A DNA stretch of 14,074 bases from a virus (taxonomy: Duplodnaviria; Heunggongvirae; Uroviricota; Caudoviricetes). This document shows positions 1-14,074 of this stretch, in pieces (within the stretch, counting starts at the first letter, position 1; each line of letters opens with the position of its first letter). The stretch spans positions 1 to 14,074 of the IMG/VR virus record IMGVR_UViG_2778261358_000016; one strand, written 5' to 3'. The position numbers were made by a program, and so were the translations under genes. The notes beneath the pieces are model-generated. The model was not told where the DNA came from. It made no database searches and saw nothing but the letters and a program-made list of their open reading frames with translations.

Positions 1-71
1 ATGATATACATGTTGATTACACTATGCATCGACAACGATGCCACATTTTTGGCTGGTTGGCAAATCTGTCA

Positions 72-257
72 TCAGGGCGGACAACAACGCCACGATCTCA
101 TCTTTCTTGGGCAATTTTTAAGAAAATCCTCAAGGGCAAATCTTTTTGGCCTTGCTTCCTGTTCATGGTCAGGCATTTCATCCATTTCTCTTAATTTTTT
201 TTCTACCTGTCTTTCAAGTATGGATAATGCGATTTCCCGTAATTCTTCGTTGTTCAT
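72..257 (-). CDS. Hypothetical small protein (61 aa), the only leftward gene in the island; candidate regulator
   Basis: AGGAG Shine-Dalgarno about 7 nt upstream of the ATG at 257 (minus strand); divergent from the rightward operon and adjacent to operator-like dyads; no recognisable motif. Confidence 0.35.
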   Translation of the reverse strand: MNNEELREIALSILERQVEKKLREMDEMPDHEQEARPKRFALEDFLKNCPRKMRSWRCCPP

Positions 258-482
258 TGTCTACTCCTGTAAAGAAATGCGCCGTAGTTCCTCACACCAC
301 GGCGCTGATAGTTTTTATCCTTTGGGTTCTATGCCGCGTTGCTGTAATTCTTTGCGGATTATTCGCTTTATCCAGGCAGCAAGAGAATCATCGCCGTCCT
401 GTTGTTGTGCCTTTTCCATCTTTTCCCGTAAGTCAGGATCTAAACGGAACTGGAACGGAGGATTACCACGCCTTTCGTTTTT

Positions 483-543
483 GTGTATTGACACGTTAAT
501 TACACCTCATATAATGTATTTATGTGTAATGACACATTACACA
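483..543 (+). promoter_or_regulatory. Two operator-like sites sharing GTGTAWTGACACRTTA (483..498 and 524..539); second lies in a perfect 8-bp inverted repeat TGTGTAAT-N5-ATTACACA (523..543)
   Basis: Direct repeat of a 16-bp motif spaced 41 bp apart, one copy overlapping the -35 and one just downstream of the -10; dyad symmetry typical of dimeric repressor binding. Confidence 0.4.
488..515 (+). promoter_or_regulatory. Sigma70-type promoter with consensus -35 TTGACA (488..493) and -10 TATAAT (510..515), 16-bp spacer, driving the rightward small-gene operon
   Basis: Exact hexamer matches read directly from sequence; located about 110 bp upstream of the first rightward gene with a strong RBS. 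Confidence 0.5.
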
Positions 544-623
544 CAATCAACACAAAAAGCAAAGCCCCGCACTGTAGGAGCAGTAACGGGGCTTCTAACC
601 AACAACGTAAACTAGGAGCCGTT

Positions 624-821
624 ATGGTTGCCGTAAATCATATACCACACCTTGTACACACACAAACGGCCTTTGTGTGGCGTTTTCTGGCACTGAGTGC
701 CGGAGAATCTCAAATAATCCACGTAACCGCCTGGACGGAACGCGAAGCGCGTAACCGTTGCCCGTCAGGTTGTGTTGCTGTATTCGCCGCCCGTATTCGC
801 CAGGGGTCACATCATGCGTAA
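624..821 (+). CDS. Hypothetical small protein A (65 aa), paralog of the C-terminal part of the next gene
   Basis: AGGAG RBS 5 nt upstream of ATG; conserved blocks FVWRF and TEREAR...ARIRQG shared with ORF 814..1275, differing mainly at synonymous third positions. Confidence 0.55.
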   Translation: MVAVNHIPHLVHTQTAFVWRFLALSAGESQIIHVTAWTEREARNRCPSGCVAVFAARIRQGSHHA

Positions 822-1275
822 AAACCGCTTGCAAAAAATTATCACGGGGCTGTATGCTTCCCCCGTCGCCCACATGGCGACCGGGTTTAGCAGCCTGAAT
901 ACATCTGGCGGACAGCCGCCCACATCCGATAAGCGGTTTTTTTGTGTCCGTAAACCTACCCATACCCGCATTATGGCGGGGCGTAACGGGGGAGCCTTTG
1001 TGCTCGCTGGTTTCCAGATGACCAGTCTGCTAACCCTGTTACGTCTCGCCACCATGTTTAGCAGCGTAGTAGCGAGACTCCTTAAAATTCATCTGGGAGC
1101 CTTTCACATGGCTGTATCCGCACGCCCTTATTTTGTCTGGCGCTTTATGCAGTGCCTGACAGACAGCATTGCAATATTCACCGTTACCGCAGCCACTGAA
1201 CGCGAAGCACGCGCCCAGCTGCCGCACGCACATCTGATTTTTGTCGCCCGTATTCGTCAGGGGGTAGGCTTATGA
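814..1275 (+). CDS. Hypothetical protein B (153 aa) carrying a C-terminal copy of the protein A domain
   Basis: ATG at 814 overlaps the stop of gene A (ATGCGTAA); AGGGG RBS; C-terminal 60 aa align with protein A (FVWRF, VTAxTEREAR, ARIRQG). Confidence 0.5.
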   Translation: MRKNRLQKIITGLYASPVAHMATGFSSLNTSGGQPPTSDKRFFCVRKPTHTRIMAGRNGGAFVLAGFQMTSLLTLLRLATMFSSVVARLLKIHLGAFHMAVSARPYFVWRFMQCLTDSIAIFTVTAATEREARAQLPHAHLIFVARIRQGVGL

Positions 1276-1502
1276 GTCAGGAAATCACACTACAACAGGC
1301 AGCAGAACGCGCCCACCAAATCGAAGTTATTTGCGCACTGGCAGAGGATTACCCTGGCATGATGACCGACAGCGAATCAGGGGCAATCATCGGCTTACTT
1401 AAACGCCTTAGCGGTGAGGTCTGCGTATTCCTGAGCGATGAACAGGAAAGAAGAACGCTTATTTCTAACGAAAAAAAATGCGGAGGGGTACATGTGCAAT
1501 AA
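1272..1502 (+). CDS. Hypothetical small protein C (76 aa)
   Basis: ATG overlaps stop of gene B (TTATGA); G-rich RBS upstream; no recognisable motif. Confidence 0.45.
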   Translation: MSQEITLQQAAERAHQIEVICALAEDYPGMMTDSESGAIIGLLKRLSGEVCVFLSDEQERRTLISNEKKCGGVHVQ

Positions 1503-1722
1503 AACCACACCGGACGCAGCAGAAGAAGCAATGCAAATACTGATACGTGCGCTCGTTGATGTTACCCACATGGTGGAGATTATGGAGAGAAAATCACAGT
1601 CGGAGCACGACAAAAGAAAACTTAAAACAATAAAAATAATTGCCAAAAACTCGCTGATAAAAGTTACAGACATCCTTAATGAGGACATTAAAAGAATAAG
1701 GGAGAAAATTTGTGATGCATAA
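1492..1722 (+). CDS. Hypothetical small protein D (76 aa) in low-GC cassette
   Basis: GGAGGGG RBS 3-4 nt upstream of ATG at 1492; overlaps end of gene C; region about 37 percent GC by eye versus over 50 percent in flanks; Lys/Glu-rich, likely helical. Confidence 0.45.
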   Translation: MCNKTTPDAAEEAMQILIRALVDVTHMVEIMERKSQSEHDKRKLKTIKIIAKNSLIKVTDILNEDIKRIREKICDA

Positions 1723-1942
1723 AATCCCTTTTGAAGTATTAATCCACTCTGAAAACGCATTAATTAAAGCACGCGAAATGAATGCGTTGTTAATTAAATT
1801 AATTGAAGTGCCGGAAGGTGGTGAAGAATCAGGTGTATTAATGTTTGCAGCCATTCAGACATTACTATCGCCGGTTATTGATGAACTGGATAAGGCAATG
1901 GCAATTCACGAGAATAATAACTCGCCCCATACCGGAGAATAA
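1712..1942 (+). CDS. Hypothetical small protein E (76 aa) in low-GC cassette
   Basis: GTG/ATG start at 1712/1715 preceded by AAGGGAG; overlaps stop of gene D; same low-GC patch. Confidence 0.45.
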   Translation: MMHKIPFEVLIHSENALIKAREMNALLIKLIEVPEGGEESGVLMFAAIQTLLSPVIDELDKAMAIHENNNSPHTGE

Positions 1943-1947
1943 AAATA

Positions 1948-2247
1948 ATGAAACTTAAATATTCTGGCTTAACTGCCAGTGGCAAAACTCGCACTAAATT
2001 CATGCGCGGTGATATTTACCGCGACCAGTACGGCGGCACGGTAATGATTAAGGGCGTGGAGGAACGGCGCGTAACCTACCGTCGTGAAGGCTACGAATAT
2101 GATTGCGTGATGCCTGTTTATCAGTTCGACCGTGATTTTTCTCTGGTGCAGGCTGTACCGCGTAACGTTCCAACCAGCAGGGAGAAAGCACGCGCCAATA
2201 TTCAGGAAATAAGAAAGATGTTGAATGTATTCAGGGGTAAAAAATGA
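1948..2247 (+). CDS. Hypothetical small protein F (99 aa), translationally coupled to the replication helicase
   Basis: Stop TGA overlaps rep ATG (ATGA at 2244..2247); GGAG upstream; no recognisable motif. Confidence 0.5.
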   Translation: MKLKYSGLTASGKTRTKFMRGDIYRDQYGGTVMIKGVEERRVTYRREGYEYDCVMPVYQFDRDFSLVQAVPRNVPTSREKARANIQEIRKMLNVFRGKK

Positions 2248-3650
2248 AACTGGCACCGAACGTAAAACTGTTACCGAAAGATAAACACACTGAGGCGGTT
2301 ATTTTTGCGGGTGATAATGCTCACTCCTTTGCAGAACATTACATGATTGCACAGGCCAAAAAAGCAGGCGATCCCATCCCTCCGGTTTACCTGGGCCGTT
2401 ATCAGTTAAGCGAACTGGACAATTTACAGATTGTTGATGAAGGACGATACAGAGCAAAGGTCATACGCGCCGGAAACCTGGACGATATGCAGATGCTGAC
2501 CATTGCCACCAAACTGGCGATCGCAGGTGTCCGGGAAGCGCGGTTACTTTCAGAGAATTTCGAACTACTGGAGGACTGGAGCGAGCAACTACCGCGACTT
2601 AAAGAAACCTGGGAACGCGGGGAAAGTCTGGTCATGAATGGCGTAAAGCGAAAAATCACACTTCCCATCTCATGGGGTTCTGAGGGATTCGACGCGCAGC
2701 AAAGCTACGTAATTAAGGGGCTTATTCCGGCTGAATCATTATGCAGCACCTACGGGGCCAGCGGTTCTTATAAATTGTTCCTGGCTATTTCCTGGTCGTG
2801 CCATGTTGCCACAGGTATGGCATGGGGAGGCCGCAGGGTAAGTAAGGGCGCGGTTATCTATATCGCTGGCGAAGGCAGTATGGGCGTAAAACGCCGCGTT
2901 AAGGCGTGGGAGATAACCCACGACAAGGTGGTTACGGATTTGTGCATCGTTAACGCGCCTGTCTTCCCTGCATCGCCTGACTATGTGGAGCAGGTTATCA
3001 GGACTGCCGGACTTGTTAAGAGCAGAACGGGCGAAAATGTGCGGCTGATTGTGATCGACACGCTGGCCCGTTGCTTTGGTGGGAATGATGAAAATGATTC
3101 CCGTGATATGGGCGCATTTATCCAGGGGTGTGACGCGATAAAGCAGGCCACAGGGGCCACGGTACTGGTGGTTCACCATTCCGGCAAGGATGAAACAAAG
3201 GGGGCGCGAGGTTCCAGCGCATTCCGCGCTGCACTGGATGCAGAGTACCGAATCAGCCGGGAAAATTCAGACGTTACAGCACTGGTGGCGGCGTGTACGA
3301 AGATGAAAGACGCAGAGGAGCCAAAAGAGAGCGCATACGACCTTAAAAGCGTGGAGGTGTTTACCGATACCGATGGCGAAGAGATTGTGTCCATGGTGGT
3401 GATTGACGTTCCCCGCGCCCCTGCTGAACTGGAGCGCATAGAGGAGGCCGGGAACAAGACGGAAAATCACACGGCTTTATGGGGTTGTATCCGGTCACGT
3501 ATACAGCATGGTGATAAATGCACGATCCCGCTGCTACGTGATGACATGAAAAAGCTGGGATATGACACAAAACACCTTAAACGATGGTTAGCCAAACTGG
3601 AAAAAGACGGCGTGATTTGCGTCGATGGGGATGATGTTCACCCACTGTAA
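2244..3650 (+). CDS. Replication protein, RepA-like RecA-fold helicase (AAA_25 family) with N-terminal and C-terminal extra domains
   Basis: Motifs resembling RSF1010 RepA-type helicases: GASGSYKLFLAISW (P-loop region, deviant), VIYIAGEGS, VIDTLARCF (Walker B-like), VLVVHHSGKDETKGARGSSAF (HH..K and RGSS motifs); iteron array immediately downstream. Confidence 0.7.
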   Translation: MKLAPNVKLLPKDKHTEAVIFAGDNAHSFAEHYMIAQAKKAGDPIPPVYLGRYQLSELDNLQIVDEGRYRAKVIRAGNLDDMQMLTIATKLAIAGVREARLLSENFELLEDWSEQLPRLKETWERGESLVMNGVKRKITLPISWGSEGFDAQQSYVIKGLIPAESLCSTYGASGSYKLFLAISWSCHVATGMAWGGRRVSKGAVIYIAGEGSMGVKRRVKAWEITHDKVVTDLCIVNAPVFPASPDYVEQVIRTAGLVKSRTGENVRLIVIDTLARCFGGNDENDSRDMGAFIQGCDAIKQATGATVLVVHHSGKDETKGARGSSAFRAALDAEYRISRENSDVTALVAACTKMKDAEEPKESAYDLKSVEVFTDTDGEEIVSMVVIDVPRAPAELERIEEAGNKTENHTALWGCIRSRIQHGDKCTIPLLRDDMKKLGYDTKHLKRWLAKLEKDGVICVDGDDVHPL

Positions 3651-3714
3651 AAAGTGGGCGTTAAAAGTGGGCGTTAAAAGTGGGCGTTAAAAGTGGGCGT
3701 TAAAAGTGGGAATA
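3650..3714 (+). repeat. Iteron array: four perfect tandem copies of 13-bp AAAAGTGGGCGTT plus one degenerate copy; further GTGGG-core copies in both orientations to about 3895; candidate origin of replication
   Basis: Perfect 13-bp direct repeats start at the rep stop codon; inverted copy CGCCCACTTT at 3744..3753; additional AAGTGGGC/AGGTGGGC copies at 3774..3890. Confidence 0.7.
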
Positions 3715-3891
3715 GTGGGTAATTTAACTGGAATTTAACAAAATCGCCCACTTTCCCACGTGTATACATCCCAAAAAGTGGGCACTAAAAAAATACTTAT
3801 GAAACAGTACGATATAAAACCACAAAATCCCAGGTGGGACGAAGTGGGAAACCATGAAAAGTTGGTAGAAAAAGTGGGCACAGGTGGGCGC

Positions 3892-4143
3892 ATGACCAGA
3901 AAAACCAGAGATAAGACAGCACCAAAATATCGCGCATTAGACATGACAGAGCACGCCTTAAAGGTGGCAATCAGAACGATAGACCGACACGTAGGGGAAG
4001 GATACGCGAAGGAACATCCCGACCTGATAAGCGCATTCATGACCACAGCAGCGGCAAACTTTGCCACGCTGACAGAACGGGAGATCGCAGAAGCAGAACA
4101 GGTAACAACCATCAACGTTAAAACCGGAGAGGTGGAATCATGA
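3892..4143 (+). CDS. Hypothetical protein (83 aa; start uncertain, ORF is open from 3760)
   Basis: AGGTGG RBS before ATG at 3892; upstream part of the open frame is occupied by iteron copies; stop overlaps the SSB start. Confidence 0.4.
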   Translation: MTRKTRDKTAPKYRALDMTEHALKVAIRTIDRHVGEGYAKEHPDLISAFMTTAAANFATLTEREIAEAEQVTTINVKTGEVES

Positions 4144-4550
4144 CAGCACAGATAGCGGCTTACGGGCGGCTGGTGGACGACCCGCAGGTAAAACAGACCA
4201 GTAAGGGCACACCGATGACGCTGGCGCGTATGGCGGTATCGTTGCCATGTAGTCAGGCGCAGGATGGGCAGGCGACGTTATGGCTATCGGTCATCGCATT
4301 TGGTAAGCAGGCCGACTTCCTGGCTAAACATCAAAAAGGCGACGTTGCCAGCGTATCCGGCACGATGCAGGTCAGCCAGTGGACCGGACAGAACGGGGAA
4401 ACGCGGCAGGGTTATCAGGTTATTGCAGACAGCGTAATCAGTGCCCGTGCGGCACGTCCTGGCGGGAACAGACGCAAAACCACAGGCACACAGGGTAATC
4501 AGCCACCAGCGGGAGGCGATGACCCTTACGGTGACGGTATTCCGTTCTGA
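4140..4550 (+). CDS. Single-stranded DNA-binding protein (SSB) homolog
   Basis: OB-fold core resembling E. coli SSB (WLSVIAFGKQADFLAKHQKGDVASVSGTMQVSQWTGQNGETRQGYQVIADSV), Gly/Gln-rich linker and acidic C-terminal tip DDPYGDGIPF (compare DDDIPF); strong GGAGAGGTGG RBS. Confidence 0.75.
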   Translation: MTAQIAAYGRLVDDPQVKQTSKGTPMTLARMAVSLPCSQAQDGQATLWLSVIAFGKQADFLAKHQKGDVASVSGTMQVSQWTGQNGETRQGYQVIADSVISARAARPGGNRRKTTGTQGNQPPAGGDDPYGDGIPF

Positions 4551-4560
4551 GGGGGTGGCG

Positions 4561-4833
4561 ATGGTACATGACCGCATAGCGGAAGAACTCGAGGCGAAAG
4601 GCTTTTACCGGAGGGCGTCGGCGCGATGGGGTGAAGTCATGCTGCTGGTGGAGACAGACAAGGAACGGCATCAGGTTACGATGCGACGGCTGGAATGTTC
4701 CAGGAAGGCACAGAAGCCACCGGAGCCGCCGGATAACTTCGGAGACCTGAGAAAGGCAGTAGATCGCACTTATGCTGAAATGGGTATAGATGGTGTAAGC
4801 GATGAAATATGGCGAAATTACCAGGACAGATAA
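4561..4833 (+). CDS. Hypothetical protein (91 aa)
   Basis: GAGGGGGTGG RBS before ATG at 4561; followed by an intrinsic terminator; ORF-track start at 4441 would overlap SSB and is less likely. Confidence 0.45.
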   Translation: MVHDRIAEELEAKGFYRRASARWGEVMLLVETDKERHQVTMRRLECSRKAQKPPEPPDNFGDLRKAVDRTYAEMGIDGVSDEIWRNYQDR

Positions 4834-4839
4834 TCACAC

Positions 4840-4862
4840 AGCCGGAGCAATCCGGCTTTTTG
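4840..4862 (+). terminator. Rho-independent terminator closing the replication operon
   Basis: AGCCGGA-GCAA-TCCGGCT hairpin followed by TTTTTGTCATGTTTT. Confidence 0.6.
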
Positions 4863-4981
4863 TCATGTTTTGTAAATTATTTGTTCGTGGTTGTTCCACG
4901 TTGCTCGCTGACCGGAACGGCATATTTTACCCGACCTGAATCATGATTATTCTCGCCCGTGGTGCCAGGACGCTGGGGCCA

Positions 4982-5031
4982 TTTTCCCGCCTGTTAATGT
5001 GCTCGCCAATATTCATTACCAGGCGGGAAAA
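4982..5031 (+). repeat. Perfect 12-bp inverted repeat TTTTCCCGCCTG-N26-CAGGCGGGAAAA in the leader of the capsid operon
   Basis: Arms are exact reverse complements; about 90 bp upstream of the capsid start; not followed by a T-run on either strand. Confidence 0.5.
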
Positions 5032-5120
5032 CGATCGGTGCGATTACTGATTTCCTTATGAAAAACGGTTGAGTGTTTGCCGCGTCCTGGAGTTCCTTAC
5101 TTAACCCCAGGACTTTTTTT

Positions 5121-6278
5121 ATGCCGAGAATAATCGAATTACGCCAGCAGAAAACCGCCATTAAAAATCAGATGCGCGACATGCTGGAGAACGCGGAAAA
5201 AGAAAACCGCAGTCTTAACGATGCTGAGGGCGCAAAATTTGACGAATTACGCGCTAAAGCTGAATCCCTCGATAAAGACATTTCCCGCCTTGAAGCCATT
5301 GCAGACGAAGAGCGCAGCAAGCCAGGTAAAAGCAGCCAGACCACTGACCCCGCAGAACTACGCAACTACATTCTGACAGGTGAAACCCGCGCATTAAGTA
5401 CAGGCGTTCCCGCTGATGGTGGTTATACCGTTATCCCCGAACTGAACACCGAAATCATGCGAATGCTGACGGATGAATCCACCATGCGCCGCATCTGTAC
5501 CGTGAAGAAAATCAGCAGCAACGAGTTTAAGCAGCTTGTTTCCGCTGGCGGTGCGACCGTTAACCACGGTGAAGAGGGTAAGACACGCGAACAGACCAGC
5601 ACCCCGCAGATTAACGAGGTGAGCATTAAGCTGTATCCGGTCTATGCGTACCCGCGCACCACATAGGAAATCGTGGATTTTTCCGATGTGGACATCCTTT
5701 CATGGCTGACGGGTGAGATTGGCGACACCTTCACGGAAACCGAAGAAAGCGATCTGGTTGTGGGCGACGGTGACAAAAAAGCAAAAGGTTTTTTATCCGT
5801 ACCCCGTGCAGAGAAGAACGACAAAGAGCGTGATTTTGGTACGTTGCAGGTAATTAAACCTTCCGAATCTCTGGCGTGGACATCTGCGGACCCGCTGATC
5901 GACCTGAAATTTGCATTACGTAAAAAATACCGCAAAAACGCGGTCTGGGTGGTTAACTCCACGACGGCGGCAAAACTTCAGAAGGTGAAGAACGCGAACG
6001 GTGATTACATCTGGCGCGACCGTTTACAGGCGGGTGATCCTGATACGTTGCTGGGCCTTCCGGTCGAATATCTGGAGTTTATGCCTGATAACGTTATTGC
6101 CCTGGGTGACTTCAAACGCGGTTACTACATTGTTGATCACGAAACAGGTGTTCGCACCAGACCGGACAACCTCACAGAGCCGGGCTTCATCAAAATTTTC
6201 ACGCAGAAATATTTAGGCGGTGGCGTGGTGGATTCGAACGCGATCAAGATTCTGGAACTGCCACAGGACGACGATTAA
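5121..6278 (+). pseudogene. HK97-family major capsid protein interrupted by a single in-frame amber codon (TAG 5664..5666); pseudogene or suppression-dependent
   Basis: ORFs 5073..5666 and 5673..6278 are in the same frame, separated only by TAG; conserved capsid region continues across the stop (YPRTT*EIVDFSDVDILSWL...GDGDKKAKGFL); N-terminal coiled-coil delta-like domain; AGGA RBS before ATG 5121. Confidence 0.7.
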
Positions 6279-6288
6279 CAGCATACAG

Positions 6289-6319
6289 AAGGGGCTTAAA
6301 AGCCCCTTTAGTGTTTTAT
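6289..6319 (+). terminator. Intrinsic terminator/attenuator directly after the major capsid gene
   Basis: AGGGGCTT-AAA-AGCCCCT hairpin followed by TTAGTGTTTT; overlaps the protease start region. Confidence 0.5.
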
Positions 6320-6890
6320 GGGTGAAAAAATTATGAAGAGTATGGAAATCCGGTCATCGGAAATCACTACCAGCGGAGCCGGTACGCTGACGGGCTACGT
6401 TGTTCGCTGGGATAAGCTTTCAGAACTGCTATGGGGGGAGTTTTACGAAAAATTCCAGCGGGGGGCGTTTACTGAGTGGCTTGCGGCGGGTAATGACGTT
6501 CGCGGCCTGTATGAGCATGACCACAGCATGTTACTGGGGCGCACCCGTTCCGGCACGCTGAAACTGGAAGAGGACGAAACAGGGTTACGCTTTGAACTGA
6601 CCCCACCGGATACCAGTACAGGGCGCGACGTTATCGAACTGGTTAAACGAGGTGATATATCCGGCATGAGCTTTGGCTTTCGTTCCCGTAAGGATGTATG
6701 GGATACCACAACAGATCCATGCGTGCGCACCGTGCTGGTGGCGGAACTATACGAAATTACCGTTACATCCGTACCGGCTTACCCTGATTCCGGCGTGGAG
6801 CTGGCCCGCCGCTCCCTGTACGAGCAGCACCCCGAAAAAATGCCGCGTGCGGATAATCGCCGCTGGTGGGCGGATTTAGCGGGGGTGTGA
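6318..6890 (+). CDS. Prohead maturation protease, HK97 family (start may be 6333 or 6342)
   Basis: Position next to capsid and portal; motifs LYEHDHSMLLGRT and GDISGMSFGF consistent with HK97-type prohead proteases. Confidence 0.75.
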   Translation: MGEKIMKSMEIRSSEITTSGAGTLTGYVVRWDKLSELLWGEFYEKFQRGAFTEWLAAGNDVRGLYEHDHSMLLGRTRSGTLKLEEDETGLRFELTPPDTSTGRDVIELVKRGDISGMSFGFRSRKDVWDTTTDPCVRTVLVAELYEITVTSVPAYPDSGVELARRSLYEQHPEKMPRADNRRWWADLAGV

Positions 6891-6891
6891 T

Positions 6892-8103
6892 ATGTGGCCT
6901 TTCAGAAGAAAAAAAGAGCAGCGCAGCATGACGCTTGATGAGTTTATGGCGCTGGCTGGCACATCGAACACGGGGGCGGGTGAGTACGTATCATCGGGGA
7001 CAGCGGAATCACTGCCCGCCGTCATGAACGCCGTCACGGTCATCTCTGAGGCGGTGGCTACCATGCCGTGTTACCTGTACCTGGTACGCAATGAGAAGGG
7101 GAAGGAGGCCCGAGAGTGGCTTGATTCTCATCCGGTCGATCACATCCTCAACGAGCGCCCGAACGCATGGCAAACCCCCTACCAGTTTAAGCGAATGATG
7201 ATTCGCCACTGCCTGTTAAACGGTAATGCTTATGCGGTGATTCAGTGGGGGCGTGATGGTTTTCCAGTCGCTTTGCATCCTTACCCGCCGCAGTCGGTGA
7301 ACGTTGAGCAGACAGGTGAGCATAACTGGCGCTACTGCATCACTGACGCCTACACCGGAAACACCCGCAACTATTTACCGTGGGAGGTTCTCCACCTTCG
7401 TTACTCCACGGATGACGGTTTTATGGGGCGCTCACCTGTAACCATCTGCCGCGAATCGCTGGGGCTTGGGCTGGCCCAACAACGCCACGGCGCGAGCGTG
7501 ATGCGTGATGGCATGATGGCGGCAGGGGTTATCACGTCAGGCGAATGGCTGGACGGCGTGAAGGGCAAACAGGCATTAGCCGCACTGGAACGCTACAAAG
7601 GGGCCAGAAACGCCGGAAAAACGCCCATCCTTGAAGGGGGTATGAGCTATCAGCAGCTGGGCATGAGTAATCAGGATGCTGAATGGCTGGCCTCCCGTCG
7701 CTTCACCATTGAAGACATCGCCCGAATGTTCAACGTCTCGCCGATTTTTTTGCAGGAATACAGCAACAGCACCTACAGCAATTTCAGCGAGGCAAGCCGC
7801 GCATTTCTCACCATGACGATGCGCCCGTGGCTGGCGAACTTTGAGCAGCAGATAAAAAACGCCCTGCTGGTGGCCTCACCTGTACCTGGTATCCGGTATC
7901 AGGTGGAGTTTGACAGCGCGGACCTGTTACGGGCCACTCCTGGCGAACGCTTTGCCACCTATGAACGCGGCATCAAATCCGGCGTTATGTGCCCGAACGA
8001 AGCCCGCGAACGTGAAGGGCTGTCCCCGCGTGATGGTGGTGATGAGTTCAGCCAGGCATGGAAACAGGAAGTAAAAATCAGCGAGGGAGAAAAACCGGAA
8101 TGA
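6892..8103 (+). CDS. Portal protein, HK97 family
   Basis: 403-aa protein with portal-like conserved blocks (NAYAVIQ, EDIARMFNVSPIFL); start overlaps protease stop. Confidence 0.8.
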   Translation: MWPFRRKKEQRSMTLDEFMALAGTSNTGAGEYVSSGTAESLPAVMNAVTVISEAVATMPCYLYLVRNEKGKEAREWLDSHPVDHILNERPNAWQTPYQFKRMMIRHCLLNGNAYAVIQWGRDGFPVALHPYPPQSVNVEQTGEHNWRYCITDAYTGNTRNYLPWEVLHLRYSTDDGFMGRSPVTICRESLGLGLAQQRHGASVMRDGMMAAGVITSGEWLDGVKGKQALAALERYKGARNAGKTPILEGGMSYQQLGMSNQDAEWLASRRFTIEDIARMFNVSPIFLQEYSNSTYSNFSEASRAFLTMTMRPWLANFEQQIKNALLVASPVPGIRYQVEFDSADLLRATPGERFATYERGIKSGVMCPNEAREREGLSPRDGGDEFSQAWKQEVKISEGEKPE

Positions 8104-8438
8104 ACATAGGGCGACTGCGTGACAGGGTAACGATTCAGACCCTGAAACAGACCAGGGATATAACCGGCGAAATACTCGAAACGTGGGTGGACGGTCACAC
8201 ACTCTGGGCAAGCGTGAACATGATCAGCAGCAAGGAGGCCATTTCATCGGGTGCAGAACTGGCGACTGGAACGGTAAGGATATGGATACGCTACAGGAAG
8301 GACATCAACGCCACCAGCCGGATAAAGGTCAATACGGGGCCGCTGGCGGGGCGTGTACTGAATATCATCGGGCAGCCGCTGCCGGATGCCGCCAGGACAC
8401 GCCTTGAAATTCTTTGTCGTGAGGGCGCGGAAAAATGA
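8100..8438 (+). CDS. Head-tail joining / head closure protein (Phage_H_T_join-like)
   Basis: About 112 aa; N-terminal GRLRDRVTIQ...TWVDGHTLWASV pattern typical of the family; ATGA overlap with portal stop; GAGGGAG RBS. Confidence 0.6.
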   Translation: MNIGRLRDRVTIQTLKQTRDITGEILETWVDGHTLWASVNMISSKEAISSGAELATGTVRIWIRYRKDINATSRIKVNTGPLAGRVLNIIGQPLPDAARTRLEILCREGAEK

Positions 8439-8731
8439 CAGAAGAACTTATCACCCTGGAAGAAGTGAAACTCCATTGCCGCATCGATGGCGACGAGGAA
8501 GACCAGTTAATCAGCGGATACATCGCCGCATCGCTTGAGGCGTGCCAGATACACATAGGCAGGCGCTTTGATGACGGGCTGGAGTTCACGCCAGCCATAA
8601 AGATTGGCTGCATGATGTTTATCGCTCACCTGTATGAAAATCGCCAGATTGTCGCGGATAACGCAAAAACACGCGTACCCATGACGATTGGTGCACTCTG
8701 GACGGCTTACCGTGATGTGGGGGTGTACTGA
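8435..8731 (+). CDS. gp6-like head-tail connector protein
   Basis: N-terminal ITLEEVKLHCRIDGDEEDQLISGYIAAS matches the characteristic LxxAKxHLRID..D.LI motif of gp6-like connectors. Confidence 0.65.
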   Translation: MTEELITLEEVKLHCRIDGDEEDQLISGYIAASLEACQIHIGRRFDDGLEFTPAIKIGCMMFIAHLYENRQIVADNAKTRVPMTIGALWTAYRDVGVY

Positions 8732-9171
8732 TGCCGTGGCAACCATTAAGACGATGCACAGAACCAGGCTGTAACAGGCGCGTGAAGTCCGGCAAGTGTG
8801 AGGAGCACAGGCGGGCGGCATGGCGTGCAGAGGATGCCAGACGAGGACACCGCCGCGCGCGTGGGTACTCCAGACAGTGGGACAAATACCGCGCCATGTA
8901 TCTGAGTAAAAACCCGTTATGCGTGCGATGCCTTGAGAAGGGGATATATACGCCCGCCGTGGTGGTGGATCACATTATCCCGATTAATGGCGGTGATGAT
9001 GTTCTCTTCTGGCCCGAATGGAACCATCAGCCATTGTGCCAGGCGTGCCATAACCAGAAAACGAAATGGCTTGATCCGGCAACAAAAAGCAAGCGTGCCG
9101 CAGGTGGATTTCGTGAAGAGGAAGAACGGGCCGCTAACCGCAATAACTGGATGTATGACGCTGATGAATGA
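8731..9171 (+). CDS. HNH endonuclease associated with the terminase (HK97 gp74-like role)
   Basis: Cys-rich zinc-binding N-terminus and HNH motif VVVDHIIPINGGDD...NHQPLCQACHNQKT; sits immediately upstream of terS/terL. Confidence 0.8.
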   Translation: MPWQPLRRCTEPGCNRRVKSGKCEEHRRAAWRAEDARRGHRRARGYSRQWDKYRAMYLSKNPLCVRCLEKGIYTPAVVVDHIIPINGGDDVLFWPEWNHQPLCQACHNQKTKWLDPATKSKRAAGGFREEEERAANRNNWMYDADE

Positions 9172-9337
9172 GCGGGAACAAAACCGCCTTATCCGTGGAC
9201 TTATAAGGCAGCGTGACGCATGGAAGACACAGGAAACAGGGCATAAAGATAAAGCGTCAGGACGCGCAGAACGCATCACAGCGAAGCGATTAACCGACCG
9301 TGACTGCGAGGTTATGGAATGTTTCCGCAATCGCTGA
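9164..9337 (+). CDS. Hypothetical small basic protein (57 aa)
   Basis: ATG overlaps HNH stop (ATGAATGA); no clear RBS; Arg/Lys-rich; could be non-coding. Confidence 0.3.
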   Translation: MNEREQNRLIRGLIRQRDAWKTQETGHKDKASGRAERITAKRLTDRDCEVMECFRNR

Positions 9338-9460
9338 TGAGGCTGTATGACGGGGTGGGGGGCGTTTTCAGGACAAACCCGACCCCGCCGGGCACCGAAC
9401 GCCTCCTCAAATTTTTATGCACGGGAATTTTTTGAAAAATAATCTGGCGAAAAAATAAGC
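9338..9460 (+). other. Putative cos region between HNH and terS
   Basis: G-rich imperfect dyad GGGGTGGGG-N17-CCCGACCCC at about 9352..9386; position matches the HNH-cos-terS-terL arrangement known from HK97-like cos phages. Confidence 0.3.
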
Positions 9461-9817
9461 ATGGCAAGACCACCGAAAGCCCCCGCCTACCTGGATGATA
9501 TCGCCGTGAAGCAGTGGCGGGAAAAATCGCGGCAGCTTGCGGAACGGGGAGACCTTACCCCCGCCGACTGGAGTAATCTGGAACTGTATTGTGTCAACTA
9601 CTCCATTTACCGGAAAGCCGTTGCAGACCTTGCGGCGCGCGGGTTCAGCATTGTTAACAGTCAGGGCGGCGAGAGCAGAAACCCCGCATTAAGCGCAAAA
9701 TCCGACGCTGAAAGAGTGATGATAAAAATGGCCTCCTTGCTCGGTTTTGACCCGATAAGCCGCCGTAAAAATCCACCGGAAACAGAAGAAGAGGACGAGC
9801 TTGACCGCCTGGAATAA
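9461..9817 (+). CDS. Terminase small subunit (P27-family-like)
   Basis: About 118 aa starting MARPPKAP, acidic C-terminus, immediately upstream of and overlapping terL. Confidence 0.65.
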   Translation: MARPPKAPAYLDDIAVKQWREKSRQLAERGDLTPADWSNLELYCVNYSIYRKAVADLAARGFSIVNSQGGESRNPALSAKSDAERVMIKMASLLGFDPISRRKNPPETEEEDELDRLE

Positions 9818-11462
9818 GTACGCAGAAGACGTAAAAACGGGCAAAATTCCGGCCTGTAAACGGCTGAAACAGGCCGTTAAACGGTACTTTTCGGACCTTG
9901 AAAGCCCCCTTTACACGTTCGATCGTGAGGTTGTGGAGCGGTTTATTGCCTTTTCCAGGGTGTGCCCGCACGTAAAAGGCGCAATGCGCGGTAGCCCCAT
10001 TGAGCTGGAGCCGTGGCAGCAGTTCGCCTTTGCGTGCATCCTCGGCTTTAAGGTTAAGGCCACCGGACGGCGCAAATACACGAGCGCCTTTATCGAAGTG
10101 CCGCGCAAAAATGCGAAATCCACGACCGCCGCGATTCTGGCTAACTGGTTTTTGATTATGGAGAACGGTCAGCAGGATATCTACACCGCAGCGGTGAGCC
10201 GTGACCAGGCGCGGATCGTCTTTGATGATGCGCGTCAGATGTGCCTTTTATCCCGACCGTTACGCAGGCGGGTGAATATTCAGGCGCATAAGGTGATACA
10301 CCCGAAAAGCAACAGCCTGTTAAAGCCGCTGGCAGCAAAAGCGGCAACCATTGAAGGTACAAACCCGAGTCTTGCCATTGTGGATGAATATCACCTGCAC
10401 CCTGACAACGGGGTTTATTCCGCGCTTGAACTGGGAATGGGGGCGCGTCCGGAGGGGCTGTTATTTGCCATCACCACATCGGGGAGCAACGTTGTTTCAG
10501 CCTGTAAACAACACTACGACTATTGCTGCCAGATACTGGATGGTGAAGAGGTGAACGAATCCATGTTCGTGCTGATTTACGAGCTGGATGATGAAAGCGA
10601 GGTTGACGATCCGGCGATGTGGATAAAGGCGAATCCCAATATCGATGTTTCCGTCGATCGTGAAAAACTGGCCTCAACCATCCAGAAAGCGCGGGGAATA
10701 CCGTCGCAGTGGGTGGAGATGATGACAAAGCGATTTAATATCTGGTGCCAGGGGGCTACCCCGTGGATGGGTAACGGCGCATGGGCTGAGTGTGCCGGAA
10801 CGTTCACGGAGGAAGATTTACACGGCCAGGAGTGTTACGCGGGGCTGGATTTATCATCAACCAGCGATATTTCCAGCGTATGCTATGCCTTTCCGGTCGG
10901 TAAAACCATTATGCTGATTTCCCGTCATTATCTGCCGGAGTTCCAGCTACAGAACCCCGCCAATAAAAACCGCGCTGTCTATCGTCAGTGGGCTAAAGCG
11001 GGCTGGATACGCACAACGCCTGGCGACTGCATTGATTACGACCGGATCAGAGATGACATCATGCAGGACGCGGAGAAATTTCATATCAGGCTGGTGGGCT
11101 TTGATACGTGGAACGCCACGCATCTCAGAACGCAATTACAGGGGGCAGGTTTTGAGGTGGAGCCGTTCCCGCAAACCTACCTCAGATTCAGTCCGGCGGC
11201 GAAATCGTTCGAAGTTTTTGTTAACCGCAGGGTGATTGTGCATCGTGGCGATCCGGTGTTGTCCTGGTCGATGAGTAACGTCGTGATGCAGAGTGACGCG
11301 AACGCCAATATCAAGCCGAACAAGAAAAAATCACCGAACAAGATAGACCCGAGCGTGGCGGCACTGATGGCGTTTGGTACATTCCAGGCAGAGCATGAGG
11401 ATTTTGCTTTTGATATAAGCGACAGCCACCGCCAGAAACTGGAAGAATTCAGCGGGGTGTAA
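9801..11462 (+). CDS. Terminase large subunit (TTG start)
   Basis: 553 aa; ATPase Walker A-like VPRKNAKST and Walker B LAIVDEYHL; nuclease-domain motif GLDLSSTSD; GAGGA RBS 5 nt before TTG at 9801, which overlaps the terS 3-prime end by 17 nt. Confidence 0.85.
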   Translation: MTAWNKYAEDVKTGKIPACKRLKQAVKRYFSDLESPLYTFDREVVERFIAFSRVCPHVKGAMRGSPIELEPWQQFAFACILGFKVKATGRRKYTSAFIEVPRKNAKSTTAAILANWFLIMENGQQDIYTAAVSRDQARIVFDDARQMCLLSRPLRRRVNIQAHKVIHPKSNSLLKPLAAKAATIEGTNPSLAIVDEYHLHPDNGVYSALELGMGARPEGLLFAITTSGSNVVSACKQHYDYCCQILDGEEVNESMFVLIYELDDESEVDDPAMWIKANPNIDVSVDREKLASTIQKARGIPSQWVEMMTKRFNIWCQGATPWMGNGAWAECAGTFTEEDLHGQECYAGLDLSSTSDISSVCYAFPVGKTIMLISRHYLPEFQLQNPANKNRAVYRQWAKAGWIRTTPGDCIDYDRIRDDIMQDAEKFHIRLVGFDTWNATHLRTQLQGAGFEVEPFPQTYLRFSPAAKSFEVFVNRRVIVHRGDPVLSWSMSNVVMQSDANANIKPNKKKSPNKIDPSVAALMAFGTFQAEHEDFAFDISDSHRQKLEEFSGV

Positions 11463-11475
11463 TGAGGTCAGCAGC

Positions 11476-11757
11476 ATGACAGAAGCCGAACTACTGGGAT
11501 TAATCCGCCGCGTATCTGGAATCAGCCAGCAGGCTGACGAACAGACCACGCAGCCGGACAGCGTGACAGCCGAAAATTATGCGCGTGTTGTTGCTGAGGT
11601 GATGTGCCGTGATGGTATCCAGCTTAATGATGTTGATATGCGCAACATACGGATCCGCGTTCTTGAAATGCTGGCCTACAATCGCCGCGTTGAACTGCAT
11701 CGGGAGAAAGAAAAAATAACGTACCACTGGAAGAAGCCGGAGCGGTTGCGGCGGTAA
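11476..11757 (+). CDS. Hypothetical protein (93 aa) downstream of terL
   Basis: ORF following terL; its stop codon lies inside the first copy of the downstream repeat box. Confidence 0.45.
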   Translation: MTEAELLGLIRRVSGISQQADEQTTQPDSVTAENYARVVAEVMCRDGIQLNDVDMRNIRIRVLEMLAYNRRVELHREKEKITYHWKKPERLRR

Positions 11758-12173
11758 CTGGTTGATATTTTCGAAATTCGCCAGCGGCGAACATCGGGGA
11801 AACCAGCCTAACCCGTTGATTCTTTCGGAAACAGCCATTGGCGGAATCCGGCGCGGTAACTTGCTGATATTCCCGATAACGCAAAATTGCGTGGCTGAAT
11901 GAACATTATGATTACTTATGATTACGCAGATGATTAAGGCCTAAACCGTTGATTCTTCCCAATTTCCACAGACTGTGGAAGTTGGCGCGGTAACTTACTG
12001 AGATTAAAGCAAAGCGCAAAATTGCGCCGACTACATCCCTCACATGCGAAATTTTCGCAGTTTAATTACTCGCCAGTTTGATCGTTAACCCGCTGATATT
12101 TTCGGGAACCTCAATTTGAGGAAGTCGGCGCGGTAACTGGTTGATACTTTCGACCTCCTCAATTTGAGGAGGT
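11748..12173 (+). repeat. Array of diverged about 133-bp tandem units, each with a Y box (TAAMCCGYTGATWYTTYC) and an X box (GGCGCGGTAACTNNNTGANAT) followed by palindromes of unit-specific sequence
   Basis: X boxes at 11748, 11848, 11982, 12125; Y boxes at 11809, 11942, 12084; palindromes TTCGCC-N3-GGCGAA, CGCAAAATTGCG (twice), TTCCACAGACTGTGGAA, CCTCAATTTGAGG (twice, once extended to 11-bp arms). Confidence 0.7.
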
Positions 12174-12613
12174 CGGGGCACAGAAAAACAACGAATATGT
12201 TGTTTTTGGGAATGGTCATAATGACCACGCAGACCATCAAGGCAACCACAACGAACATCGTTACGGTTGGAGCTTTTACCCCACTGGGGGAAAGGTATTA
12301 CGATAATCATAACACCTACCGAACAGGTAAAACCCACCAGCCTGATTAACAGTTAACCGGAAAAAAAATCCGGTAGCCCCGTTATGGGGATCCCCATATC
12401 GACATTAACGCCCCTCATGAATTGGTGCGCTTCCCCCTGGAAAGATTACCCGCCTGTATATTTCTTGTGTCTATTTGTTCCACGTTGTTTCATACAGTGC
12501 ACCGAACGGTGTAGTTAATGGTGTAGTCAATTTGCTGTTTTTAGCACTTTTTGCAGTGTGGGTTGTTTAATTAAATCAATTGGTTGCCTTGCTGTGGTGA
12601 TAAAAGGACATAT

Positions 12614-14074
12614 TTATTCATCTTTCGGCGCAGAATGCTGGCGACCAAAAATCACCTCCATCCGCGCACCGCCCAGCATGCTCTCTCCGGCGACGATTTT
12701 ACCCTCATATTGCTCGGTGATTTCGCGGGCTACCGCCAGCCCTACACCTTGCCCAGGGCGTAAAGTATCAACCCGTTGACCACGGTCGAAAATGACCTCT
12801 CGCTTGCTTAATGGAATACCGGGGCCATCATCCTCGACCACAATATAGAGATGCTCGTCGGTTTGCCTTGCAGAAATTTCGACAAACTCGAGGCAATATT
12901 TACAGGCATTATCCAGCACGTTGCCCATCACCTCGACAAAATCGTTCTGCTCACCGACAAAGCTGATCTCTGGCGAAATATCGAGAGAGATATTGACCCC
13001 TTTGCGTTGATACACTTTGTTCAGCGCTGAGGTGAGATTGTCCAGCAGTGGGGCGACCGGATGCAGCTCGCGGCTGAGCAATGTCCCGCCGCGCATACTG
13101 GCACGATGCAGGTAGTAGCCAATTTGCTGTGAAATGCGGCTGATTTGCTCCAGCATTACCGGCTCAGCATCACTGACGCTCATCTTTTCACTACGCAGAG
13201 AACGCAGCGTACTTTGCAGCACCGCCAGTGGCGTTTTCAGACTATGGGTCAGGTCGGTGAGCGTCGTACGGTATTTGTCGTAACGTTCGCGTTCACTTTT
13301 TAACAATCGGTTCAGGTTTCGTACCAGACTGGTCAGTTCTCGCGTTGTGGCTGGATTGAGCAATTCGCGGTTATGTTCTTCCAGTTCGCGGACTTCTTTT
13401 GCCAGGGCTTCGATGGGGCGTAAACTCCACCAGGCGGCGACCCACAGCAGCGGGATCACTAACAGCAGATTGGCTGAGAGCACATAGATAAACCAGCTCC
13501 AGACCATATAGGAACTTTTTAGCTCCACCGGAATGGTATCCACCACCACAATGGTTAATTTTGGCATCCGCGATGTTGCCGGGTAGACGTTTACTGCCAC
13601 CGAGTGGGTCATCTCCGCGTCGTCATCATCTTCCCGCACTTCCTGCAACTGTTGCTGTATCGAATGATCTCCACTCAGCAAGAGGCTGGTATCGTTAACA
13701 TCCGCTTCAATTTCATGAAAACCATTCGATTTCAGCCAGTCAGGCTGGATCATCTTCATCAGCCAGGGCACGTCACGTTGCGCCCATAAAAGCTGCCCGT
13801 TCTCATCATAAATTAGCGTCATGGTGGGGCTTTGCTTGTCGATATTTTCGGGTAACTCGACATGCAACTTATTGTTTTCCCACTTCGCAAGGGTATAGAA
13901 CAGATTGCTCTCGCCACGTAACAGCCGAAACGTAGTTTTATCGAAACTGACGCTATAACCGATCAGCGCGACCATTCCGTAGGCAAGCGAAAGCACCAGT
14001 ACTACCGCAGCCGTTGCCAACAGAAAACGTACCCGCAGTGAGAGCGGGAAAAAAAGACGCAGTAATTTTTTCAT
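12614..14074 (-). CDS. phoQ: Sensor histidine kinase PhoQ (complete, 486 aa)
   Basis: Translation shows two transmembrane segments, an acidic periplasmic patch (EDDDDAE), the H-box ([12 protein letters not shown]) and ATP-binding G-boxes; C-terminus [11 protein letters not shown] as in enterobacterial PhoQ. Confidence 0.95.

Follow-up and report, generated by a model that had tools for sequence, protein, structure and literature searches.

In the Staphylococcus aureus pathogenicity islands (SaPIs) and other phage-inducible chromosomal islands (PICIs), a single Rep protein unites a helicase with an origin-specificity domain, and iterons flank an A/T-rich stretch beside its gene. The prototype of the capsid-forming PICIs (cf-PICIs) is EcCIEDL933, which is induced by helper phages and gives the classical PICI bands of replicating and packaged DNA (10.1101/2022.09.08.507074). 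RepA of RSF1010, in turn, is a bare helicase motor that is loaded by a separate initiator, RepC (PMC8965321), and, according to the same 2022 paper, the AAA_25 proteins had no known function yet. In the present study we analysed a 14,074-nucleotide (nt) stretch, positions 1 to 14,074 of IMG/VR record IMGVR_UViG_2778261358_000016 (hereafter the window, to which all coordinates refer unless stated otherwise), and in particular its gene rep, the product of which (Rep) has an atypical Walker A motif, or P-loop. We conclude that Rep is probably the initiator-helicase of a cf-PICI, in which (i) Tyr176 of the P-loop would be a working variant of a whole subfamily, and (ii) Leu178 is a private and most likely disabling change in a decaying island.

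The window is a segment of the Escherichia coli chromosome, 99.8% identical to strain E110019, and its island lies between roxA and phoQ. EcCIEDL933 occupies the same site in EDL933 and has the same DUF4222 gene before rep. The two elements share 98.5% nucleotide identity over window positions 4835–14074 and 96.7% over 3882–4861, whereas no nucleotide similarity was found across 2320–3882. The EcCIEDL933 Rep is a 710-amino-acid (aa) protein with DUF927 and HTH_56; its motor, DUF927, has no relationship to AAA_25, and the differences extend to the C-terminal HTH and the origin. In contrast, its first ~125 aa are homologous to those of the window Rep (45% identity, E=6e-28; window 2244–2618 versus 24039–24420 of the EDL933 sequence, L011). 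One N-terminal module without a Pfam family is therefore carried by two unrelated helicase motors. Judged from these alignments, the replication cassette (motor, C-terminal domain and origin) has been exchanged between cf-PICIs that are otherwise 97–98.5% identical. The replication data for EcCIEDL933 were rejected as functional evidence for the window Rep, because the EDL933 motor is of the DUF927 type.

The ATG of rep and the stop codon of the preceding DUF4222 gene overlap (ATGA). The rep gene and the domains of its product are the following:

2244–3650, plus strand: rep, predicted RepA-family (AAA_25) initiator-helicase of 468 aa (open reading frame (ORF), Pfam, phrog and Prokaryotic Genome Annotation Pipeline (PGAP)).
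2244–2618, plus strand: N-terminal alpha/beta domain, aa 1–125 (alternating strands and helices in the AlphaFold2 (AF2) model).
2679–3443, plus strand: RecA-fold NTPase core, aa 146–400 (predicted local distance difference test score (pLDDT) of 95–99 in the AF2 model).
3456–3647, plus strand: C-terminal domain of three helices and a beta-hairpin, aa 405–468, presumed winged-helix iteron reader.

The Pfam profile AAA_25 (PF13481) matched aa 146–317 with 140.6 bits (cut-off 27, E=6e-41), phrog_2850 matched Rep with E=9e-185, and the PGAP label of the protein is "helicase RepA family protein". The AF2 model, built from a 147-sequence alignment (mean pLDDT 90.3), was used for its secondary structure, pLDDT and fold matches; an earlier model from 27 close homologues (pLDDT 64, below 50 in the P-loop) was discarded in its favour. 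The top fold matches in the PDB were the RSF1010 RepA structures 1olo, 1g8y and 1nlf (target-normalised template modelling (TM) scores of 0.66–0.72, E~3e-11), with the best value, 0.72, obtained for 1olo/1g8y. The same RepA entries were the best PDB matches at the sequence level (E=2.7e-4 with a single sequence, 1e-13 with a profile), and they share with Rep the Walker A Lys, the motif 1a Glu, the Walker B Asp, the motif 3 His and the Arg after motif 3. Unlike Rep, which reads GSYKL, RSF1010 RepA has the canonical GAGKS, the overall identity being ~17–19%, and the motor of the window Rep is fused to an N-terminal domain and to a C-terminal domain of DNA-binding type, with iterons adjoining the gene. 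No Pfam match was found for the N-terminal domain (aa 1–125), and searches of Pfam and NCBIfam with both terminal domains gave nothing significant (only a non-significant MCM5_C and sub-threshold RadA/RadB hits). The C-terminal domain is modelled as helices at 407–421, 428–437 and 442–454 followed by strands at 458–461 and 464–467, with pLDDT >90. Profile, modelled fold and catalytic motifs agree in placing Rep among the RepA-family helicases. A hexameric ring with NTP-dependent 5'–3' unwinding, a trait of the RepA/AAA_25 RecA-fold helicases, may extend to Rep.

The family alignment revealed that Rep proteins are mosaics, with N-terminal, core and C-terminal segments recombining independently. 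P0035 and P0045 combine the core of the window Rep with N-termini of other types, and P0076 is of the window type from about aa 320 onwards but not in its N-terminal half. Many database entries of the family are N-terminally truncated ORFs (P0075, P0119, P0111); P0075, which starts at the equivalent of Met131, stands for 329 member sequences. That such truncated entries are common suggests frequent upstream lesions or mis-called starts.

Conservation of the catalytic residues was scored in a diverse set of 144 sequences, i.e. the window Rep plus 143 cluster representatives (50% identity) drawn from the 30,956 relatives that a search retrieved. The list of catalytic motifs of RepA-family helicases was taken from PMC8965321. 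The corresponding features of the window are:

2754–2777, plus strand: Walker A motif (P-loop), G171-A-S-G-S-Y176-K177-L178 (alignments with RepA and with canonical relatives, model).
2769–2771, plus strand: Tyr176, codon TAT, in place of the conserved Gly that precedes the Lys of Walker A (clade-wide variant).
2775–2777, plus strand: Leu178, codon TTG, replacing the Mg-coordinating Ser/Thr (private TCG>TTG change at nt 2776).
2871–2873, plus strand: Glu210, motif 1a catalytic Glu ("AGEG"; 144/144; aligned with RepA "PAED").
3057–3059, plus strand: Asp272, Walker B ("LIVIDTLAR"; 144/144; aligned with RepA "LMVLDTLRR").
3174–3179, plus strand: His311-His312, motif 3 (144/144; aligned with RepA "LHHASK").
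3207–3209, plus strand: Arg322, putative arginine finger ("GARGSS"; 143/144; role by analogy with the RepA family, PMC8965321).

Rep fails the strict Walker A pattern GxxxxGK[S/T] at two positions, while the first Gly and the Lys are kept. Sequence and profile alignments confirmed the original prediction of a non-canonical P-loop, with Tyr immediately before the Walker Lys (K-1) and Leu immediately after it (K+1). The prediction had placed the loop at 2751–2780; these nucleotides encode Y170-G-A-S-G-S-Y-K-L-F179, so the residues had been read correctly, although the motif proper starts one codon further on. The register, which had been set by eye, was upheld by the AAA_25 profile and by three further comparisons: (i) phmmer aligned GSYKL of Rep with GAGKS of RSF1010 RepA (1g8y), with the motif 1a Glu, Walker B and His-His also in line; (ii) 52 canonical GK[ST] relatives have their P-loop in the same columns without a gap; and (iii) the AF2 model places a strand at 166–171, the loop at 172–176 and a helix at 177–190 (pLDDT 97–99 in this region), which in the model is the canonical strand/P-loop/helix arrangement. 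With its position fixed by homology, the P-loop is not a chance pattern. A regular-expression search for [AG]xxxxGK[ST] across the whole of Rep gave no match, the sole other GK being that of HHSGKD in motif 3, so the canonical motif that might have lain elsewhere in the protein was not found. The downstream motifs had been described as intact, which was also correct: Asp272 (IVIDTL), H311-H312, K315 and R322-G-S-S are all kept and conserved. In the diverse set K177, E210, D272, T273, H311, H312 and G323 are invariant (144/144), and R322 is present in 143 of 144 sequences.

Analysis of the relatives revealed that the two departures from the consensus have separate histories. The aromatic residue is old and clade-wide: G[AP]SGSYKS was found in all 120 of the best homologues, at identities down to 53%, and position K-1 in the diverse set is occupied by Gly (52 sequences), Tyr (45), Phe (34), Leu (7) or other residues (6). 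In a distance tree from which the P-loop columns had been excluded, the aromatic forms fell into a largely coherent block with an occasional Gly, and a crude parsimony count on the Rep distance tree gave ~15 changes at K-1. Close relatives can differ at this position, as illustrated by P0164, which has GAGKSF at 49% identity to the window Rep. Among the 144 sequences the aromatic K-1 residue co-varies with an upstream motif, G145-S-x-G-[Y/F/W]149-D150, and with Pro162:

2676–2693 and 2727–2729, plus strand: co-varying columns, aa 145–150 and 162 (separation of Y/F from G).

The window Rep has G145-S-E-G-F149-D150 and P162, and these columns split the Y/F from the G sequences with a distribution distance of 0.69–0.84; the association may be partly phylogenetic.

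Aromatic P-loops are also present in lytic phages. Among 1,316 phage records with a match, the P-loop was read in five phages. GESGTYKSF was found in the helicase-primases of one sampled Jerseyvirus and one sampled Kagunavirus, and GATGTFKTF in that of Vibrio phage 1245, while Mycobacterium phage Saguaro (gp56) and Salicola phage CGphi29 have kept GK[ST]. The helicase-primases of the Guernseyvirinae (Jerseyvirus and Kagunavirus; phrog_3228) and of Vibrio phage 1245 resemble Rep in their RecA-fold core, aromatic Walker A and full set of catalytic motifs. They differ from it in size (~730–900 aa, with primase-type N-terminal regions, at 25–28% identity), in belonging to lytic phages rather than satellites, and in having Ser/Thr at K+1 where the window Rep has Leu. 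No solved structure was found in the PDB among the members of the aromatic-P-loop group, and literature searches on aromatic, atypical or non-canonical Walker A motifs of RepA-like or phage helicases retrieved no paper mentioning the variant.

These observations point to a large subfamily of RepA-like helicases with the Walker A form Gx[SP]Gx[Y/F]K[S/T]F, in which an aromatic residue takes the place of Gly. Y176 and F179 of Rep fit this proposed motif, whereas at K+1 all the relatives have S/T and Rep has Leu. The Tyr176 loop is, apparently, an undescribed subfamily variant. Tyr176 is a trait common to hundreds of related phage and satellite helicases and is probably a conserved variant compatible with function. 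Since the catalytic apparatus is fully conserved and the variant occurs in the sole helicase-primase of lytic phages, Tyr176 gives no sign of a non-motor protein. The nearest precedent is that of the MCM and MoxR-type AAA+ ATPases, active ring ATPases that have Ala or Ser instead of Gly before the Walker Lys; unlike Rep, they have the AAA+ and not the RecA-like fold, and a small residue instead of a bulky aromatic one. It is possible, though rather unlikely, that the aromatic K-1 residue and the G-S-x-G-[Y/F/W]-D motif define a distinct mode of nucleotide binding in this large phage/satellite clade; the aromatic pair might, for example, clamp the base or gate the site, thereby altering nucleotide preference or coupling, and Tyr176 would then be more than a tolerated replacement of the "invariant" Gly.

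Leu178, on the other hand, is private to one lineage. Position K+1 is Ser in 125, Thr in 18 and Leu in one of the 144 diverse sequences, the window being the only one with Leu, and it is Ser in all 120 close homologues as well as in 13 further cluster members; WP_406874191.1 of strain Z1323HEC0393 is an example of the S178 form. A single transition (TCG>TTG at nt 2776) accounts for the change, which is specific to the window when compared with the two nearest complete genomes, both with TCG. The 61-base segment examined is present in 36 of 5,426 complete E. coli genomes, none of which (0/36) matches it exactly, and the allele is absent from all 5,426. The exact L178 protein was found at the same locus on 19 draft contigs (NCBI, ENA, Logan), and since these are independent, Leu178 is not a sequencing error. 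The sequence comparisons identify it as a private single-nucleotide change in one E. coli lineage.

The Ser/Thr at K+1 is a buried Mg ligand that is strictly conserved, apart from a few exceptions among kinases (PMC9599734). Leu178 removes this ligand, and NTP hydrolysis by the L178 protein, and with it replication of the island, has therefore very probably been lost; binding of DNA may be retained. From sequence, Leu178 is most likely an ordinary inactivating missense change that produces a helicase-dead allele. The original prediction had suggested that the protein hydrolyses NTP poorly or differently: for the L178 allele this is apt (hydrolysis is probably poor). The loop is not one designed feature, since its two unusual residues have two origins, Tyr176 being a clade trait.

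The same island shows further damage, including that of the major capsid gene:

5121–6278, plus strand: major capsid gene, split by an in-frame TAG, Q182* (C>T at 5664, stop codon 5664–5666; ORFs split at 5666/5673).

The capsid gene is intact in E110019 (L001), Z1323HEC0393, EDL933 and L003. Within the L178 lineage, Q182* is shared by the window and L004–L007, whereas L003 has an intact capsid gene but a stop codon in TerL (C316*); S178L thus predates both nonsense mutations. The accumulation of nonsense mutations in the island of the same lineage also indicates that Leu178 is a lesion and not an alternative mechanism. The sister strain E110019, the nearest complete genome (rep at 6244–7650 of L001), has Ser178 but carries W184* (TGG>TAG), 18 bp from the codon-178 change, and its prohead protease gene (10305–10876 of L001) is frameshifted; in the sister lineage the island has been inactivated independently. 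Such a pattern of lesions would be expected of an immobilised island on which selection is relaxed. With Rep L178 and capsid Q182*, this copy is predicted to fail in the cf-PICI functions of helper-phage induction, replication and transfer in small capsids. Two window-specific substitutions were also detected in codon 417 of terL (11049–11051), changing Ser to Arg; the remaining window-specific changes in the portal, connector and TerL genes are synonymous.

Directly downstream of rep lies a region with the attributes of an iteron-type origin:

3650–3895, unstranded: origin region with iterons, an inverted copy and an A/T-rich stretch (Tandem Repeats Finder (TRF), AAGTGGG count).

TRF identified 4.7 perfect tandem copies of the 13-bp repeat AAAAGTGGGCGTT at 3650–3710, directly after the rep stop codon. 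These are followed by an inverted copy (3747–3753), an A/T-rich stretch and copies at 3776, 3842 and 3872 (to 3878). Nine of the ten matches to AAGTGGG in the window fall in this region, with 1.5 expected across the whole window. The number of iterons varies among near-identical islands (one copy fewer than the window in E110019, two fewer in L004/L005 and one more in L003), and related islands have the same layout of DUF4222, rep, repeats and SSB. Four variants of the Rep C-terminal domain go with four iteron cores: GTGGGCG, GTGGGGAG, GTGAGGCG and GTGCGGCA. These data argue for Rep as an iteron-binding initiator-helicase, the binding being predicted from sequence and model. In its predicted union of origin recognition and helicase, in the iterons and A/T-rich stretch beside its gene, and in a specificity that seems to co-vary with the C-terminal domain, Rep resembles the SaPI Rep. 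It differs in that the SaPI motor comes from a different helicase family and in that origin binding by the window Rep is a prediction. The suggestion that the protein acts as an initiator rather than a motor is accordingly upheld in its initiator part (C-terminal domain, adjacent iterons), but its non-motor part is unsupported for the family, given the invariant catalytic residues and the variant's presence in lytic-phage helicase-primases.

In the mechanism that we propose for the family form, the winged-helix-like C-terminal domain would bind the AAAAGTGGGCGTT iterons directly downstream of rep, and the RecA-fold core would form a RepA-like ring, by analogy with RSF1010 RepA. NTP hydrolysis and unwinding of the origin would depend on K177, the K+1 Ser as Mg ligand, E210, D272, H311/H312 and, in trans, R322, and the SSB of the island would coat the resulting single strands. 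The L178 allele would be a replication-dead remnant, possibly still able to bind the iterons, in an island decaying in place.

Several points weigh against this interpretation. The aromatic loop in phages is documented by three sampled phage genomes. For the Ser178 form, activity as NTPase and helicase is deduced from conservation and from occurrence in lytic phages. Iteron binding by the C-terminal domain is read from four cases of co-variation and a predicted fold, with no significant Pfam match. The presumed loss of function by S178L is judged from general knowledge of P-loops in other proteins, and the Mg ligand might in part be replaced by water or by an adjacent residue. Finally, the L178 lineage is represented by at least 19 assemblies in which the rep ORF is otherwise intact, which would fit a tolerated or selected allele. 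An artefact of sequencing or misalignment, in contrast, is almost certainly the wrong explanation of the P-loop: the original prediction had itself warned that the by-eye alignment might be offset, but profile, pairwise and structural evidence agree on the register, and the exact L178 protein recurs on the 19 independent contigs. We also consider it very unlikely that the aromatic Y/F loop marks a clade of inactive pseudo-NTPases serving only as scaffolds or in DNA binding. The Gly before the Walker Lys is admittedly among the most conserved P-loop residues, and members of the clade have been neither characterised nor solved. However, the aromatic clade keeps every other catalytic residue unchanged, Gly and Y/F interconvert between close relatives (as in P0164), and the variant occurs in annotated helicase-primases of the sampled lytic Guernseyvirinae and Vibrio phage.

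The remaining alternatives concern Leu178. The change might be tolerated and near-neutral, with Rep still hydrolysing NTP (e.g. with water completing the Mg shell) and replication of the island unaffected. This is compatible with the persistence of the lineage, which has been sampled 19 times or more and in which rep is otherwise undamaged, and Ser/Thr at K+1 is naturally missing from a few P-loop families (PMC9599734). We regard it as improbable, since K+1 is S/T in 143/143 diverse and 133/133 close relatives, the exceptions in PMC9599734 are kinases with Gly as opposed to RecA-fold motors carrying a bulky Leu, rep was knocked out independently in the sister lineage six codons downstream, and the packaging genes of the L178 lineage are decaying. 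Alternatively, Tyr and Leu could be adaptive together, Rep being an origin-binding loader or initiator that needs no NTP-driven motor. Its origin-binding-type C-terminal domain, the adjacent iterons and an ORF otherwise intact in 19 assemblies would suit such a protein. Yet Leu178 is absent from all the other homologues inspected (0/263), and throughout the family the catalytic Glu, the Asp of Walker B, the His-His pair and the Arg finger have stayed invariant, a set that a non-motor protein would not maintain; moreover, the island encodes no other helicase, and nonsense mutations are building up in the capsid and TerL genes of the L178 lineage, so this explanation is quite improbable. Selection by the host is a further explanation: a helicase-dead Rep that occupies the iterons might block replication of the island on induction or be dominant-negative towards incoming related satellites, S178L and W184* having both been favoured. 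In its favour, sister lineages with 99.8% identity have each acquired a rep lesion of their own, the two lying within 18 bp, and the remainder of the L178 ORF has been preserved. We nevertheless judge it highly improbable, because two events are too few to part selection from drift, the breakage of capsid, TerL and protease genes fits general relaxed selection, and truncated rep ORFs are common in databases. A functional family variant at Tyr176 combined with a private lesion at Leu178 is thus the reading that we retain.

The wider context of rep also corresponds to that of cf-PICIs. Over 13,650 overlapping bases the window is 100% identical to the draft contig NJZN01000011.1 (GCA_002460955.1). 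The island begins with the genes for an integrase and an AlpA-type regulator, which lie just outside the window on its upstream side; they are followed by Icd-like genes, DUF4222, rep, the repeats and SSB. After SSB come PerC, the major capsid protein, prohead protease, portal, head closure protein, connector, HNH, TerS and TerL. This order matches the cf-PICI layout (int-alpA-rep/ori, then capsid, protease, portal, connectors, HNH, TerS and TerL; ~15 kb). No tail genes were found in the gene content of the island (the window together with its flanks in L001/L003), and the annotation of the island includes no second helicase besides Rep. On these grounds of gene content and sequence we assign the island to the EcCIEDL933-like cf-PICIs of the roxA/phoQ site. 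The genes on either side of rep and its origin are:

1948–2247, plus strand: DUF4222 gene, directly 5' of rep (Pfam, E=5e-24).
4140–4550, plus strand: SSB gene of the island, 3' of the origin (annotation, Pfam SSB).

The position of DUF4222 before rep is common to every related island examined, including that of EDL933, and is the same whether the motor of Rep is AAA_25 or DUF927. Its constancy beside both types of motor suggests that DUF4222 is a conserved partner of the shared N-terminal module.

With regard to the family, these results allow a trait (Tyr176) to be separated from a lesion, the change that most likely disables Rep being one private Ser>Leu. A filter that insists on a strict GxxxxGK[ST] would mistake this entire clade of phage and satellite replicative helicases for degenerate proteins, the helicase-primases of the sampled Jerseyvirus and Kagunavirus among them. 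That selection has kept a bulky aromatic residue at a position that is usually Gly represents a natural experiment on the geometric needs of the P-loop. The island itself is an example of an EcCIEDL933-type cf-PICI whose replication cassette has been swapped, and in one of its lineages the genes for replication and packaging are being lost stepwise.

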